Part shown: positions 443-5,515 of the stretch, piece by piece
Position numbering within the stretch: position 1 is the first letter of the stretch
How the letters are laid out: every line of letters starts with the position of its first letter
Source: a virus
Virus genome (UHGV): UHGV-0192366
Length of the DNA stretch: 35,794 bases
Reading direction: 5' to 3' (one strand)
Translations under genes and position numbers: made by a program
Notes under the pieces: model-generated
Seen by the model: only the letters and a program-made list of their open reading frames with translations
The model's database searches: none
Told to the model about the DNA's origin: nothing

Positions 443-1159
443 CTATGCTGCATTTAAAAACTTATTGATAAAATACTGCTGACCTTTACCGGTTACTTTT
501 GTGGTTTTGTTAATCCGAACGGAACCATCTGGATTCATAGCTGTTGTCTCTTTCACTTCAAACAGCCCTAAATTCATAGATTTCTGTGTGGGCGAGTTCC
601 ATTCCGTTCCTTTTCTCTTACTCAGATATCCATTTTCACGCAACCACTCAAATAAGCGCTTCTGCCCTGTTTCAACGCCGTTCTGTTTCAAAATCTTCGC
701 CAGATCGCCGATTAAGATGGATGTATGACTGGTAGCGACAGCATCCGCAAATATCGCTTTCGGCTTCATTTCCTCAATTTGCGCTGTCTGCTCTTCGATT
801 GTCTTCTGCGCTTCAAGTACTGCAAGCGCAAGAAGTTCTTTACCCTGTGGAACGTGTTCTTTGATGACGTTTTCCATCTGGTGAAATCGCTTGATGTATT
901 TTGCTGTGAACTCTGTTCCTTTGACTCCCGTGAGCTTGTGGGCGATAAATTCGCACCCCTCTTTTGTGATTAGGTAGCACGGATATTCTTTTCCTCTACC
1001 ATTTACATAAGTTGATTCTGCGAAAAAATCTGACTGGGGAATTTTCCCCAGTGAAAGTTGTTCGCAATATCTACGAATATCTTTCATCAAGTCATTGTGG
1101 GCTTTCCCAACCATCTCAGCCACTTCACGGCTGTCTAATTTCTGTTGCAATTCGTTCAA
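443..1159 (-). CDS. phage antirepressor (Rha N-terminal domain plus KilA-C/ORF6C C-terminal domain)
   Basis: N-terminus SREVAEMVGKAHNDLMKDIRRY...YPCYLITKEGCEFIAHKLTG is typical of Phage_pRha. C-terminus LFEWLRENGYL...GLFEVKETTAMNPDGSVRINKTTKVTGKGQQYF matches the KilA-C/ORF6C type. TTG start with an AGGAGGT RBS. Confidence 0.8.
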   Translation of the reverse strand: MNELQQKLDSREVAEMVGKAHNDLMKDIRRYCEQLSLGKIPQSDFFAESTYVNGRGKEYPCYLITKEGCEFIAHKLTGVKGTEFTAKYIKRFHQMENVIKEHVPQGKELLALAVLEAQKTIEEQTAQIEEMKPKAIFADAVATSHTSILIGDLAKILKQNGVETGQKRLFEWLRENGYLSKRKGTEWNSPTQKSMNLGLFEVKETTAMNPDGSVRINKTTKVTGKGQQYFINKFLNAA

Positions 1160-2292: not shown

Positions 2293-2488
2293 TTACTTTA
2301 TATTCGCTTACTTCTCTTTCTACAAGGACAAGCTTTCCTTCATAATTGTTTGATTCCACTAAACCATCAAAACGATTTTTTGCTTTTTCGTAACTTGTGC
2401 TTGTAAATCTGCAGGGAATTCCTTGATAACTTAATGGGATAAAAAGTTTTCCGTTTTTCACCGTTCTGATTGAATATTCTTTCTTCAT
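2285..2488 (-). CDS. hypothetical first early gene (Cro-position, no recognisable HTH)
   Basis: GGGAGAAAGAAGGAAAG RBS. It lies directly downstream of a consensus minus-strand promoter and diverges from the CI-like gene. Confidence 0.5.
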   Translation of the reverse strand: MKKEYSIRTVKNGKLFIPLSYQGIPCRFTSTSYEKAKNRFDGLVESNNYEGKLVLVEREVSEYKVIE

Positions 2489-2573
2489 GTTCTTTCCTTC
2501 TTTCTCCCCGTCATGCCGATAGGACAGCGTTTTTAATTTTGGTTTGTTGTGTTGTTTTGTTGTCTATGGTTAC

Positions 2574-2602
2574 ATTATACTGACCTTTGGTAACTTTGTC
2601 AA
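2574..2602 (-). promoter_or_regulatory. early (lytic-direction) promoter TTGACA-17-TATAAT on the minus strand
   Basis: Plus-strand tgtcaa at ~2597-2602 and attata at ~2574-2579 with a 17-nt spacer. Perfect consensus. Confidence 0.6.
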
Positions 2603-2629
2603 CTCTTTTTTGTTGCCTTTGGTAACTTT
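2584..2629. repeat. two 14-bp direct repeats CCTTTGGTAACTTT (candidate operators) in the switch region
   Basis: Copies at ~2584-2597 and ~2616-2629. The first overlaps the minus promoter spacer and -35. The second abuts the -35 of the plus promoter. Confidence 0.55.
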
Positions 2630-2634
2630 TTTTC

Positions 2635-2663
2635 TTGACTTTGACTTTTTACTGATATATAAT
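2635..2663 (+). promoter_or_regulatory. promoter of the CI-like repressor gene TTGACT-17-TATAAT
   Basis: Hexamers and spacer read directly. GAAAGG RBS, ATG at 2687. Confidence 0.6.
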
Positions 2664-2686
2664 GTAATCAGAAAGGCGGTGAATAA

Positions 2687-3085
2687 ATGTCTTACGGGAA
2701 AAGAGTATTTGATCTGAGAAAGCAGTTAAATTTAACTCTCGAGAAATTCGGTGAACCACTAGGAGTGACTAAGACTGCGATCTCTAGAATAGAGAAAGAA
2801 GAACGTACAATAACAGATCAAATGGCTAAAGCCATATGTAGAGAATATGGAGTGAACGAAGAATGGCTATTATCTGGAACAGGCGAAATGTTCAAGCAAC
2901 CATCCGATGAAATTGGGTATTATGTAGAAGATTTACTGGAATATGACGGACATGGAAATCCTTTTTACGATATGATCATAGAAATGATGAAGAAATATCA
3001 AGAACTGGATGAAAAATCAAAAACTGTTATACGAGAGTACTTCAAAAGCGTAGGTTCTGGGTTAAGTGAAAAAAGGGAAGACTAA
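2687..3085 (+). CDS. XRE-family HTH repressor, CI-like (no peptidase S24 domain)
   Basis: HTH LTLEKFGEPLGVTKTAISRIEKEE followed by the NEEWLLSG motif common in Firmicutes phage repressors. Diverges from the early promoter. Confidence 0.75.
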   Translation: MSYGKRVFDLRKQLNLTLEKFGEPLGVTKTAISRIEKEERTITDQMAKAICREYGVNEEWLLSGTGEMFKQPSDEIGYYVEDLLEYDGHGNPFYDMIIEMMKKYQELDEKSKTVIREYFKSVGSGLSEKRED

Positions 3086-3192
3086 AGTCTCCCTCTTTTC
3101 TCCAGATACCTATGTAATATCGAAACAAGCTGCTTAATGATTCTGTAGTCGTTACCATTCAGCTTGGATAACAAGATATTTAATTCGTCCAT
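3082..3192 (-). CDS. 36-aa helical peptide ORF (MDELNILLSKLNGNDYRIIKQLVSILHRYLEKRGRL)
   Basis: GGAGGG RBS 8 nt upstream of ATG. Below the ORF-track cutoff. Its stop overlaps the stop of the CI-like gene convergently. Confidence 0.4.
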   Translation of the reverse strand: MDELNILLSKLNGNDYRIIKQLVSILHRYLEKRGRL

Positions 3193-3241
3193 CGTGAGTC
3201 CCTCCTAACTGCAAAAACACATGTTCGAAATTCCTGAATAT

Positions 3242-3270
3242 ATAATACTATTTCAGTGAATAAAAATCAA
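3242..3270 (-). promoter_or_regulatory. minus-strand promoter TTGATT-17-TATTAT, flanked by inverted repeat ATGTTCGAA / TTCGAACAT
   Basis: Hexamers read on the minus strand. IR arms at ~3221-3229 and ~3279-3287 bracket the promoter. Confidence 0.45.
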
Positions 3271-3388
3271 TATTTTGTTCGAACATTTGTTCTGTTATTT
3301 TATGGCAATATTTTGCCCTCTATTAAGTAAACAATTAAAATTCGGGAAACTTACGCAAAAATGGACAATCGTCCCAGATCTGGGACAC

Positions 3389-3586
3389 TTATTTGTATGG
3401 AGAGTCGATAAGGTCAGAAATTCGGACTTTTAAGCCCCTGGCAAGCAATTCCAATGTGTCGGCTGTCGGTGATATTTCACCATTTGCAATGCGGTTGATC
3501 GTTGATTTTGATATTCCGGTCGCAATGGATACTTGCCGAGTAGATAGGTTTTTATCGAGCATGATCTTATCGAGTAGTATTTTCAT
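3389..3586 (-). CDS. small XRE-family HTH protein (Cro/SinR-like, 65 aa)
   Basis: Classic HTH LSTRQVSIATGISKSTINRIANGE. Diverges from the lipoprotein gene. Direct repeats ATACTGGAAA x2 lie in the intergenic region 3609-3641. Confidence 0.7.
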   Translation of the reverse strand: MKILLDKIMLDKNLSTRQVSIATGISKSTINRIANGEISPTADTLELLARGLKVRISDLIDSPYK

Positions 3587-3711
3587 AATATTTTAATTGT
3601 AGTATATTCCGATACTGGAAACTACAGGGAAATACTGGAAATGATATAACCGCTTCGGCGTTTATATATAGAGTAAAGTGGTGTTAATGTACATAAGAAA
3701 GTGAGGAAGCT

Positions 3712-4242
3712 ATGAAAAAGAAAATTGTAGCAATGTTATTAGTAGGAGCTATGGCATTATCCATTACAGCATGTGGTGGGGATGCCGAACCATCCAAAGA
3801 CGCCGAGGCAAAGACAGAAGCAACAACAGAGCAGAAAGAAGGATCAAAAGAAGAAGCACAGCCAGTCGATGACGGAATCATAGATTTTACAGCAGAAAAA
3901 TTTAATGTAAAATATGTACGACATGAATTTGCGAATGATTATGAGGGAAATAAATGTCTGCTTTACTATTATACCTTTACAAATAATTCGGACAAAAACG
4001 CAACAGCTGGAATTGCTGCAAACGTACAGTGTTTTCAGGACGGTGGCGAGTGTGAAATAGGAATTATGGCAGAACAGAACGACTCTATGAACAATTACGC
4101 TATAAATGAAGTGCAGCCAGGTGGAACGGTTGAAGTATGCCAGGTATATAAATTGAAGAGTGATACTGAGCTCACAATCGAAGCATCCGATATGATATCG
4201 TTTGACAACAAGAAGGATACTCAGAAAATCGCCGTGCAATAA
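3712..4242 (+). CDS. secreted lipoprotein (lipobox LSITAC); candidate superinfection-exclusion/lysogenic-conversion protein
   Basis: Signal peptide MKKKIVAMLLVGAMALSITAC-GG. GAGGAAG RBS. Located between the immunity genes and int. Confidence 0.7.
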   Translation: MKKKIVAMLLVGAMALSITACGGDAEPSKDAEAKTEATTEQKEGSKEEAQPVDDGIIDFTAEKFNVKYVRHEFANDYEGNKCLLYYYTFTNNSDKNATAGIAANVQCFQDGGECEIGIMAEQNDSMNNYAINEVQPGGTVEVCQVYKLKSDTELTIEASDMISFDNKKDTQKIAVQ

Positions 4243-4280
4243 AATAAAAACCGCCCCAGTGCTACCAACACTGAGACGGT
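4241..4280 (-). terminator. rho-independent terminator on the minus strand (12-bp stem with 2 G.U pairs, then UUUUUAUUUU)
   Basis: Minus-strand RNA folds as accgucucagug-uugguag-cacuggggcggu followed by uuuuuauuuu. The plus-strand version is weaker and has no U-tract. Confidence 0.45.
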
Positions 4281-4408
4281 CTACATATCCGAAGATATGC
4301 GATTAAAATCCAAGAATATTGTATCATCTTCGGAGCAGTCATGCAAGTGGAACATCAGTTCGCACGTTGGCTGTTATTTTTATACTTAAATTTAAAGGAG
4401 ATGACGAA

Positions 4409-5515
4409 ATGGCAACAGCAAAGCAGCTGCCCTCCGGTACATGGAGGTGTCTTGTATATAGCCACAAAGAAAAGCTATATGACAGGGAAGGAAAACCAAT
4501 TATCGACGAGAAGACAGGGAAACAGAAGGAAAAGAGAATATACGAATCCTTTACAAGCTCCCTTCCGGGGCGAAAGGGAAAGCAGGATGCAGAAGCGCAG
4601 GCGGCTACATTTCTTGCAGAGCGAGAATTTAAACAGCGCCCGGAAAACCTAAGCATAAGAGAGGCCTTTAAACGGTACATAGCCGCGAAAGAAAATGTGC
4701 TGTCAGAAACCACATTGCGCGGGTATGAGACGATTATGAACAACCAGATTGCAGATATTGCAGAAATCAGTATACGCAAGATCACACCAGAGAATGTGCA
4801 GATGTGGATCAATAATCTATCCGCAAGACTATCGCCAAAAACCGTAAAGAACGCCTATGGACTTTTTATCCCGGTAATGTCTATGTATGCCCCAGATCGG
4901 ACATTTAAAACCACCCTCCCTCAGTCGGAAGAACTAGAGTATTATACTCCATCCGATCAAGATATAGTAAATCTAATAGAGTACATTAAGGGAACAGAAC
5001 TTGAAAAAGCTGTGCTTCTGGCTGCTTTTGGCAGCCTTAGACGCGGAGAAGTGTGCGGACTCGAAAAAGAGGATATAAACGGAAATTCGATTAGAGTCCG
5101 GATTACAAGAGTGCGCGGAAGAAAAGGGATGATCGAGAAGTCACCTAAGACGAAAAAGAGTTACCGATATATTATTTTTCCAGAATTTGTTATACGAAAA
5201 TTTGATGATGTAGAAGGAAAACTTGTTAAGATGCACCCGGAAGATATCTCTAAAAAGTTTGGGCGTATACTGCAAGCGGCAGGGATACCAAAGTTCCGAT
5301 TCCACGATCTCAGACATTATACCGCATCGATCATGCACGCTATCGGGATACCTGACCAGTATATAATGAAGCGTGGCGGTTGGAAATCTGATCGCGTGTT
5401 AAAAAAAGTCTATCGCAACACGATTGATGCAGAAGACAAGAAATTTATCGATAAAGTAAACTCACATTTCGAGAACATGCAACACGAAATGCAACACGTA
5501 GAAAAAGAAGCCTGA
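4409..5515 (+). CDS. int: tyrosine recombinase / phage integrase
   Basis: AAAGGAG RBS, ATG at 4409 (the track start at 4319 is TTG). C-terminal catalytic region HDLRHYTASIM...GGWKSDRVLKKVYRNT is typical of Y-recombinases. N-terminal arm-binding-like SGTWRC. Confidence 0.9.
   Translation: MATAKQLPSGTWRCLVYSHKEKLYDREGKPIIDEKTGKQKEKRIYESFTSSLPGRKGKQDAEAQAATFLAEREFKQRPENLSIREAFKRYIAAKENVLSETTLRGYETIMNNQIADIAEISIRKITPENVQMWINNLSARLSPKTVKNAYGLFIPVMSMYAPDRTFKTTLPQSEELEYYTPSDQDIVNLIEYIKGTELEKAVLLAAFGSLRRGEVCGLEKEDINGNSIRVRITRVRGRKGMIEKSPKTKKSYRYIIFPEFVIRKFDDVEGKLVKMHPEDISKKFGRILQAAGIPKFRFHDLRHYTASIMHAIGIPDQYIMKRGGWKSDRVLKKVYRNTIDAEDKKFIDKVNSHFENMQHEMQHVEKEA

Follow-up and report, generated by a model that had tools for sequence, protein, structure and literature searches.

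A candidate LexA-gated mini anti-repressor encoded convergently with the cI-like gene of a temperate phage of the Mediterraneibacter gnavus group

In most arbitrium systems, AimR and AimP are followed by AimX, a helical anti-repressor of 29-80 amino acids (aa) (10.1101/2025.11.23.689978). In phi106, one of the Bacillus phages which carry the extended arbitrium system with AimX-AimC (and AimL) together with phiW23 and BMBtp14, aimX is a 29-aa open reading frame (ORF) which closely follows a LexA site on its upstream side; it is convergent with aimC and overlaps this gene (10.1101/2025.11.23.689978). AimC is an XRE repressor of 80-140 aa which has no cleavage domain and is encoded divergently from the cro-like aimL (10.1101/2025.11.23.689978). 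AimX binds the C-terminal domain of AimC and blocks its oligomerisation (dimerisation) and DNA binding (10.1101/2025.11.23.689978; PDB 9sf2, 9iaq), and stop-codon and recoded alleles showed its action to be at the protein level and excluded a role of the RNA (10.1101/2025.11.23.689978). The AimX sequences are highly divergent and track AimC, few homologues of aimC or aimL were found outside arbitrium systems, and the authors (Kabel et al.) themselves liken the system to SinI/SinR (10.1101/2025.11.23.689978). In this study, a 36-aa ORF which is convergent with the cI-like repressor gene of the UHGV virus genome UHGV-0192366, a stretch of 35,794 nucleotides (nt) referred to below as the window, was analysed and compared with AimX and other described anti-repressors.

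LexA-controlled anti-repressors have also been described in enterobacterial phages, namely Tum (186), GfoA/GfhA/GftA (Gifsy) and AntC (N15) (PMC3121763). In the transcription factor-small ORF (TF-smORF) modules and VqmA-Qtip of plasmid-like phages of Vibrio and Aeromonas, a small protein inactivates the cognate cI without proteolysis (PMC10432266). The TF-smORF proteins are about 57-61 aa long (171- and 183-nt ORFs) and have no detectable homologues (PMC10432266).

The window was identified as the circularly permuted genome of a temperate siphophage of the Mediterraneibacter (Ruminococcus) gnavus group, and the positions of its features are presented in Table 1. The product of the 36-aa ORF is rather likely to be a LexA-gated, AimX-like mini anti-repressor of the cI-like repressor (cI), judging from sequence comparison and from the analogy with AimX/AimC. 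In the lysogen, the 132-aa cI would silence the leftward early operon, and the host LexA would hold the peptide promoter shut via two boxes. Due to the absence of an autocleavage domain, cI should be uncleavable through RecA. After DNA damage, LexA would be inactivated and a short transcript of ~170 nt would be made, stopping at the terminator common with cI. The peptide would then bind its cognate cI at the helical C-terminal (oligomerisation) domain, and the peptide-bound cI could neither oligomerise nor bind its operators, leading to lytic growth; this interaction and its consequence are predicted from AimX/AimC, Tum and the Gifsy anti-repressors. A third LexA box would couple the expression of int, and presumably excision, to the same SOS signal. 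The 65-aa XRE protein encoded upstream is not needed for the proposed circuit and would probably add a second input.

Table 1. Positions of the features of the window; strands are given as + and -.
Feature	Position	Strand	Description
Leftward early genes	incl. Rha/KilAC protein 443-1159	-	
Genetic-switch region	2555-2663		two divergent consensus promoters and operator-like repeats
cI-like gene	2687-3085	+	132 aa; HTH_3/HTH_19 are the sole Pfam domains
Bidirectional intrinsic terminator	3068-3102		common to cI and the peptide gene; both stop codons inside the hairpin
36-aa ORF	3082-3192	-	MDELNILLSKLNGNDYRIIKQLVSILHRYLEKRGRL; candidate mini anti-repressor
Conserved element			~100 bp, between the 36-aa ORF and the 65-aa XRE gene
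LexA box 1 (candidate site)	3227-3215	-	CGAACATGTGTTT; ~+9 to +21 of the predicted transcript
Peptide promoter	3242-3270	-	-35 TTGATT 3270-3265, 17-nt spacer, -10 TATTAT 3247-3242; sigma-A type
LexA box 2 (candidate site)	3280-3293	+	CGAACATTTGTTCT (core 3280-3292 CGAACATTTGTTC); ends 10 nt upstream of the -35
Palindromic hairpin	3371-3386		GTCCCAGATCTGGGAC; directly 3' of the 65-aa XRE gene, before the peptide promoter
65-aa XRE gene	3389-3586	-	Pfam HTH_26/HTH_3, single domain
Candidate operator of the 65-aa XRE protein	3596-3641		ATTGTAGTATATTCC-N5-TGGAAACTACAGG; overlaps the direct repeats
DUF5067 lipoprotein gene	3712-4242	+	
Third LexA-type box	4350-4362	-	CGAACTGATGTTC; overlaps the -35 (TTCGCA, 4359-4364) of the predicted int promoter (4359-4386)
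Tyrosine integrase gene	4409-5515	+	ATG 4409; lysis genes then follow

All the features listed by an earlier sequence-only reading of this DNA were located where it had placed them. Short ORFs are abundant in the first 6.5 kb of the window, where 76 ORFs of at least 25 aa were counted, so the 36-aa ORF is uninformative by itself and the evidence for it comes from its conservation elsewhere. About 75 loci were obtained by a pattern scan of IMG/VR and GTDB genomes for the conserved ~100-bp element. Each of the ~85 related loci examined carried an intact ORF of 32-42 aa in this place. The same arrangement was detected in the loci fetched independently via the cI protein or via distant homologues of the peptide, and in these the small ORF overlapped an XRE gene of 128-136 aa by 4 nt. 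The products belonged to at least eight sequence families with one common helix-loop-helix pattern. Within the families, the variable sites were distributed as 8/8/24 over codon positions 1/2/3 (chi-square 12.8, p ~0.002), and the pooled ratio of nonsynonymous to synonymous polymorphism (pN/pS) of the small ORF was 0.08-0.33. The Shine-Dalgarno (SD) sequence AGGAGGG (3206-3200, minus strand) is located 7 nt before the ATG of the peptide (3190-3192), and AGGAGG, AGGGGG or GGAGG was found in every lineage. The TAG stop of the 36-aa ORF (complement of 3082-3084) shares 2 nt with the TAA of cI (3083-3085). By these comparisons, the 36-aa ORF is a real and conserved gene under purifying selection, convergent with cI and with a promoter of its own.

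The peptide family comprised 157 clusters at the 90% identity level and 310 at the 50% level; nearly all had a length of 33-110 aa, no Pfam domain and either the name 'hypothetical' or none. The AlphaFold 2 (AF2) model of the 36-aa peptide contained helices at residues 2-9 and 16-33 with a predicted local distance difference test (pLDDT) score of 91, and its basic tail, YRYLEKRGRL, is strongly conserved. The region 3201-4396 was 82-91% identical to the Ruminococcus phages RG-TP1, phiRg507T2_2, phiRM10, phiRg519T2 and others. This homology begins at 3201, adjoining the ATG of the small ORF, as a mosaic joint. The ~100-bp element was conserved to ~89% (an estimate) in the R. gnavus phages, and one 103-nt match was 89.3% identical. 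Both cI and the small ORF vary between the R. gnavus phages, and the small ORF with its SD was present in each of them; RG-TP1 carries the same element and ORF, annotated as gp44, hypothetical protein.

The promoter TTGATT-17-TATTAT bracketed by an inverted repeat, as described in the sequence-only reading, was present, and the repeat was longer than stated there: AACACATGTTCGAA (3216-3229) and TTCGAACATTTGTT (3278-3291) are complementary at 13 of 14 positions. What had been missed was that the repeat forms a pair of candidate LexA (SOS) boxes, the key to when the unit would fire. The promoter matches 9 of the 12 consensus positions, and 16 promoter-like sites were found in the region versus 7.3 expected. 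It is therefore not above chance alone and becomes credible because both hexamers are kept across lineages with diverged spacers. The -35 variants were TTGATT, TTGAAA and TTAATC, and the -10 variants TATTAT, TATATT, TATGAT, TATTCT and TATCAT; the hexamers and the boxes persisted between lineages with unrelated 17-nt spacers. The order on the minus strand was constant across the lineages: box 2, 9-10 nt, -35, 17 nt, -10, a stretch of ~15 nt ending with GGAATTT, box 1, SD and ATG. A plus-strand promoter with TATAAT at 3241-3246 was rejected, as it had no -35 at a workable spacing.

The motif GAACnnnnGTT[TC] has been used and validated for lexA, recA, ruvC and uvrB of C. difficile, and the B. subtilis LexA consensus is GAACN4GTTC (PMC4234289). 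Box 1 is an exact fit to the clostridial core GAACnnnnGTTT (consensus from PMC4234289) and was kept where its flanks diverge, being GAACAGTTGTTC or GAACATTTGTTC (stronger) in lineages F, G and H. The core of box 2 likewise fits the clostridial motif exactly; this box was found at loci of every LexA-boxed lineage, and perfect CGAACATTTGTTCG was present in L050 and L053. In L088, one box was located inside the spacer of a TTGCAA-17-TATAAT promoter. Exactly three GAACNNNNGTTY sites, each preceded by C, were found in the 35.8-kb window with 0.43 expected, a number reached in 1 of 100 shuffles. A box with up to one mismatch within 100 bp of a box with up to two mismatches occurred in 7 of 300 shuffles. 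When up to two mismatches to CGAACNNNNGTTCG were allowed over the whole window, there was no enrichment (11 found versus 10.7 expected), which means that only the exact core motif is informative. On the comparative evidence, the peptide promoter and both boxes are phylogenetically footprinted, and the binding of LexA at the boxes is predicted from the motif.

The third box, near int, had a counterpart in nearly all the related loci (L001-L049, L078-L083), 45-68 nt upstream of the integrase ORF, whether this was of the tyrosine or the serine type. Its half-sites were conserved and its spacer was ATAT, GTTT, ATTT, ATCA or ATCT. This pattern suggests that the expression of int, and hence excision, may be SOS-inducible. 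The relative RG-TP1 was obtained by mitomycin C induction.

The cI model (AF2, pLDDT 80.8) consists of an N-terminal XRE helix-turn-helix (HTH) domain with helices at residues 3-63 plus a C-terminal domain that has helices at 72-84, 92-105 and 109-131, joined by a conserved linker, NEEWLxxGxGEMF. The Pfam search of cI resulted in HTH_3/HTH_19 only, with no S24 autocleavage/peptidase domain, and a scan of neighbouring ORFs revealed no ImmA-like protease. In ~1000 clusters of cI homologues, conservation was higher in the C-terminal domain than in the HTH. A PDB sequence search with the cI profile had the phi106 repressor 9sf2_A as its best match (E 1e-9, HTH only). The Foldseek search with the model was HTH-dominated and brought up 9sf2 (phi106 repressor with AimX) and 9iaq, and SinR ranked ninth among the structural neighbours. 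The cI gene is divergent from the leftward early genes across consensus promoters, TTGACA-17-TATAAT (2602-2574) leftward and TTGACT-17-TATAAT (2635-2663) rightward. Operator-like repeats CCTTTGGTAACTTT are located at 2584-2597 and 2616-2629 with a variant at 2555-2576, and the repeats within 2555-2663 are candidate cI operators. These switch promoters are near-perfect sigma-70-type and interleaved with three operator-like copies, (C)CTTTGGTAACTTT / TCTATGGTTACATT. The first leftward ORF (2285-2488, 67 aa) had no HTH match; relatives annotate a 'Cro-like' protein there.

In 77 loci, the peptide clusters and the clusters of the cI C-terminal domain were paired strictly one-to-one. In the same loci, one HTH cluster occurred with up to four peptide clusters, and one peptide cluster with up to three HTH clusters. 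The HTH domains appeared to be shuffled among the cassettes of C-terminal domain and peptide, with the apparent breakpoints in the linker at residues 57-69 (~2855-2895). The one-to-one pairing is expected of a cognate binding pair and equally of tight linkage, and as comparative evidence it is supportive rather than decisive. The sequence-only reading had left either of the two XRE proteins open as the target of the peptide; the family of the peptide follows that of the cI C-terminal domain, and the 65-aa protein is a bare HTH. The mechanism which that reading had suggested, antagonism of an XRE protein in the manner of SinI, has the best support, given this tracking and the AimX/AimC precedent. 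The peptide was also considered as a copy of the C-terminal helices of cI, and this was abandoned since the hints were too weak. The peptide of family E matched the window cI by BLASTP with an E-value of 2e-4 over a common IEMMKK stretch, which was a single match picked post hoc. The hhalign probability between the peptide and the cI C-terminal helices was 2%, and the hidden Markov model of the peptide scored 5 bits on cI, which was in the tail of the decoys (~10 of 2295 reached that score).

The locus shares most of its layout with AimX/AimC. In both systems, a short XRE repressor is composed of an HTH, a linker and a helical C-terminal domain without an autocleavage domain. The repressor gene is divergent from the early lytic operon in the AimX/AimC phages and probably also in the window. 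In both, a tiny helical ORF is convergent with the repressor gene and overlaps its 3' end (at 3082-3085 in the window), a LexA site is located just upstream of the small ORF (in phi106), and the anti-repressor sequences are divergent and track the repressor family. In contrast to AimX/AimC, no AimR/AimP was found in the window, where the 65-aa XRE gene occupies that place, or nothing does in other loci, and the promoter stands between two LexA boxes. Lachnospiraceae (Clostridia) rather than Bacillus serve as hosts, the peptide has no similarity to AimX and cI resembles AimC at the HTH level only. The function of the window peptide is a predicted one.

With Tum, the Gifsy proteins and AntC, the window has in common a small (~136 aa) non-cleavable repressor and a small anti-repressor whose promoter carries a LexA box and which binds the repressor and frees it from DNA, as is predicted for the window. 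However, those proteins are ~70-146 aa long, unrelated in sequence and encoded far outside the immunity region near dinI homologues, whereas the window gene is at most half the size and abuts the repressor gene. Due to this adjacency, the C-terminal domain and the anti-repressor would travel as one cassette. No match to Tum, GfoA or AntC was obtained with the peptides against Pfam/PHROG. SinI-SinR of B. subtilis (PDB 1b0n) is similar in that the helical C-terminal multimerisation domain of an XRE repressor is met by a small helical antagonist. SinI is recognisably homologous to the C-terminal domain of SinR, whereas the resemblance of the window peptide to cI is weak; no Pfam SinI match was found for the peptide, and SinI is under Spo0A, not SOS. 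The TF-smORF modules resemble the window in that a small transcription-factor gene adjoins a small-protein gene. They are SOS-independent, whereas the window promoter carries LexA boxes. Their smORF is activated by a transcription factor encoded in the divergent direction, whereas the XRE gene of the window is in tandem and dispensable. They are also located away from cI.

Several observations weigh against the assignment of the peptide as a LexA-gated anti-repressor of cI. The co-segregation of the peptide with the C-terminal domain could reflect adjacency, because the abutting coding regions leave no room for recombination. No homology of the peptide to AimX, SinI, Tum, Pfam, PHROG or PDB entries was detectable. 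In the search of the peptides against Pfam and PHROGs, nothing significant was obtained, the best match being phrog_32332 (unknown function; E 1.4e-4) with family D only. The peptide profile matched only designed helical proteins among the PDB sequences, none better than E 0.16, and AimX was not among them. Neither box overlaps the -10 or the -35, unlike in classical LexA promoters, and box 1 of the window lineage has a weaker GTTT half-site. The LexA motif was borrowed from C. difficile and B. subtilis and may not be the host's own. The early operon also codes for a Rha/KilAC 'antirepressor', which might, for example, reinforce the inactivation of cI once derepression has happened. In L086/L087, the peptide and the small XRE gene are kept and no LexA-type box was found in 5.4 kb, so SOS gating is not universal. 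In these metagenome contigs (cI homologue P0034), the region ~2900-3340 contains the gene of the 36-aa peptide, MEQLQKLLSKLDESDKAIIRQLCAVVYRYLEKRKRL, and, 133 nt upstream of it, an XRE gene of 64 aa. The arrangement implies that L086/L087 may use a different trigger, possibly an XRE-dependent one.

The 65-aa XRE gene had been presented in the sequence-only reading as one regulatory module with the peptide. A recurrent synteny of the two was observed: of 71 loci, 54 (L086, L090 and L092 among them) carried a small XRE gene upstream, on the strand of the peptide gene, and the homologues in lineages F and G were ~40% identical (estimated by eye). The idea that the gene was a lineage-specific insertion was dropped when it turned up in divergent lineages. 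The gene was absent in the other 17 of the 71 loci (phiRg507T2_2, phiRg519T2 and 15 others) with the promoter, boxes and peptide unchanged. In addition, a single XRE/peptide module is not demonstrated, because a conserved hairpin separates the XRE gene from the peptide promoter. In this comparison, the 65-aa XRE gene recurs as a partner but can be dispensed with. Its protein may regulate the peptide promoter, as it sits where AimR would, or the divergent moron/integrase unit.

The hairpin at 3371-3386 was kept in all lineages with compensatory changes (C:G to G:C), as in GTCCGAGATCTCGGAC, GTCCGGGTTCCCGGAC and GTACACTATAGTGTAC. It was always preceded by AAGTGT and had the same position in L053, L055, L063, L086, L090 and L092. 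As no U-tract is adjacent, its role as a terminator is uncertain; possible functions are those of a signal for 3' stabilisation or processing, of an unusual terminator or of a palindrome bound by a protein. On the other side of the XRE gene, the TGTAGT...ACTACA and TTCC...GGAA symmetry of the candidate operator was conserved, which points to a putative role of 3596-3641 as the operator of the XRE protein. The direct repeats noticed earlier between the 65-aa gene and the lipoprotein gene are exact, ATACTGGAAA occurring exactly twice (3612-3621 and 3632-3641), and the second copy was partly conserved in relatives, e.g. AAACTGGAAA...ATAATGGTAA. No second copy of the candidate operator CTGGAAACTACAGG was found near the peptide promoter at up to three mismatches. 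Further on, a hairpin with a UUCG-type loop, ATATAACCGCTTCGGCGTTTATAT (3644-3667), stands before the moron genes in all R. gnavus-type phages with or without the XRE gene; its fold was unexceptional (-7.2 kcal/mol, z-score -0.7).

These results bear on an alternative that partly overlaps the preferred explanation, a TF-smORF module in which the 65-aa XRE protein, as activator or second repressor, would chiefly govern the peptide promoter and LexA would be an add-on. It is an unlikely explanation, and the upstream position of the small XRE gene in most loci, including the lineages of ~40% identity, speaks for it. The XRE gene also holds the place of AimR relative to aimX and is the only candidate regulator in L086/L087, where LexA boxes are absent, and sequences with GTTTCC were found upstream of the XRE gene and again in the stretch from its 3' hairpin to box 2. 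However, the loci without the gene include cultured temperate phages whose promoter, boxes and peptide are unchanged, and the candidate operator is not repeated near the peptide promoter. The conserved hairpin divides the two units, and with adequate -35 and -10 hexamers an activator should be unneeded.

The peptide could also be SOS-induced and have a target other than cI, acting as a DinI/AriS-type modulator of RecA/LexA, an inhibitor of a host function or defence, or a directionality factor of the integrase. LexA boxes also precede int, and the members of such a small phage SOS regulon need not all target cI. The basic tail of the peptide could contact nucleic acid or another partner, and the peptide is not significantly homologous to the cI C-terminal domain. 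We regard such a target as rather improbable, since the peptide is strictly paired with the C-terminal domain while the integrase type (tyrosine or serine), the morons and the HTH vary freely, and since its position and overlap are identical to those of AimX/AimC. In addition, an uncleavable repressor needs an SOS-linked inactivator, and there was no other candidate under a LexA box in the window.

Another alternative is control at the RNA level, in which transcription running convergently into cI would act through antisense RNA or through the collision of polymerases and the ORF would be incidental. The genes are convergent with overlapping stop codons, and aimX was first thought to act in this way. 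The minus strand of the terminator folded with -19.9 kcal/mol (z-score -3.1; none of 200 shuffles was as good) and is followed by UUUUUU. The plus strand folded with -14.7 kcal/mol, and the same site was also picked by a terminator scan. The shared terminator limits the predicted peptide transcript to ~170 nt and its overlap with the cI mRNA to only ~25-30 nt. This antisense overlap lies inside the terminator, and read-through of it is possible. The antisense or collision control of cI suggested in the sequence-only reading nevertheless appears very improbable. A strong bidirectional terminator separates the genes, and the bias at the third codon position and the low pN/pS point to selection on the protein. 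The size and helical pattern of the ORF are kept by eight unrelated nucleotide families, and in Bacillus the aimX-stop and recoded alleles excluded both cis and trans RNA effects (10.1101/2025.11.23.689978). An Rfam scan of 2400-4500 with E-values up to 1 gave two sub-threshold chance matches and no known RNA family.

It is extremely improbable that the 36-aa ORF exists by chance and that the conserved 100 bp are just a regulatory or recombination element: short ORFs are indeed abundant and this one is unannotated in most database records, but it was intact at every locus examined in eight sequence families, with codon-position bias, a conserved SD at the right distance and a family of 310 clusters.

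A further, tentative extension of the anti-repressor reading is possible, although doubtful. The C-terminal domain of cI and the peptide may form a portable cassette of induction specificity which evolves apart from the HTH domain of immunity specificity by recombination in the linker. Prophages with shared cassettes would then cross-induce and those with different ones would be insulated, for which Gifsy crosstalk is a model of cross-induction of heteroimmune prophages with the same cassette. The XRE protein would serve as a second, non-SOS input and as the sole one in L086-like lineages. If this were true, the locus would represent a decision node of the arbitrium type, with no known signal, in phages that infect a gut bacterium associated with inflammatory bowel disease (IBD).

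To our knowledge, most gut Firmicute prophages carry short XRE repressors unable to self-cleave, and their way of sensing DNA damage is, as far as we know, largely unknown. If the proposed function of the 36-aa peptide is correct, a family of 32-42 aa would link DNA damage to temperate phages of Mediterraneibacter gnavus and related Lachnospiraceae, and the AimX/AimC mechanism, published in 2025, would reach beyond Bacillus and beyond arbitrium signalling. The mitomycin inducibility of this phage group would be explained, and it could be predicted which co-resident prophages cross-induce. One 36-aa peptide would be the switch for R. gnavus prophages, which bears on the phage-based manipulation of IBD-associated species. 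Such genes could be found from the sequence alone, by anchoring a search on a promoter which carries LexA boxes and is convergent with the gene of a short repressor.

In the two-box genome scan, L051, L052 and L054 were excluded as chance matches in coding sequences of Flavobacteria or Bacteroidetes, and L075 as an unrelated TTCGAA-rich array. The latter is a viral contig (IMGVR_UViG_3300015214_000041, 58 kb) with dense overlapping TTCGAA / CGAACATTTGTT motifs at ~2176-2255 and several LexA-like half-sites in 110 bp; neither a small ORF nor an XRE gene adjoined the array. In the window, the 'antirepressor' gene of the leftward early operon (443-1159) codes for a 238-aa protein with Phage_pRha and KilAC (ANT) domains and is without a LexA box. 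Two plus-strand ORFs of 125 and 89 aa with no Pfam matches were located at 1284-1938 inside the otherwise minus-strand early region. This position is occupied by different genes in relatives, and the plus-strand pair looks like a moron-type island.

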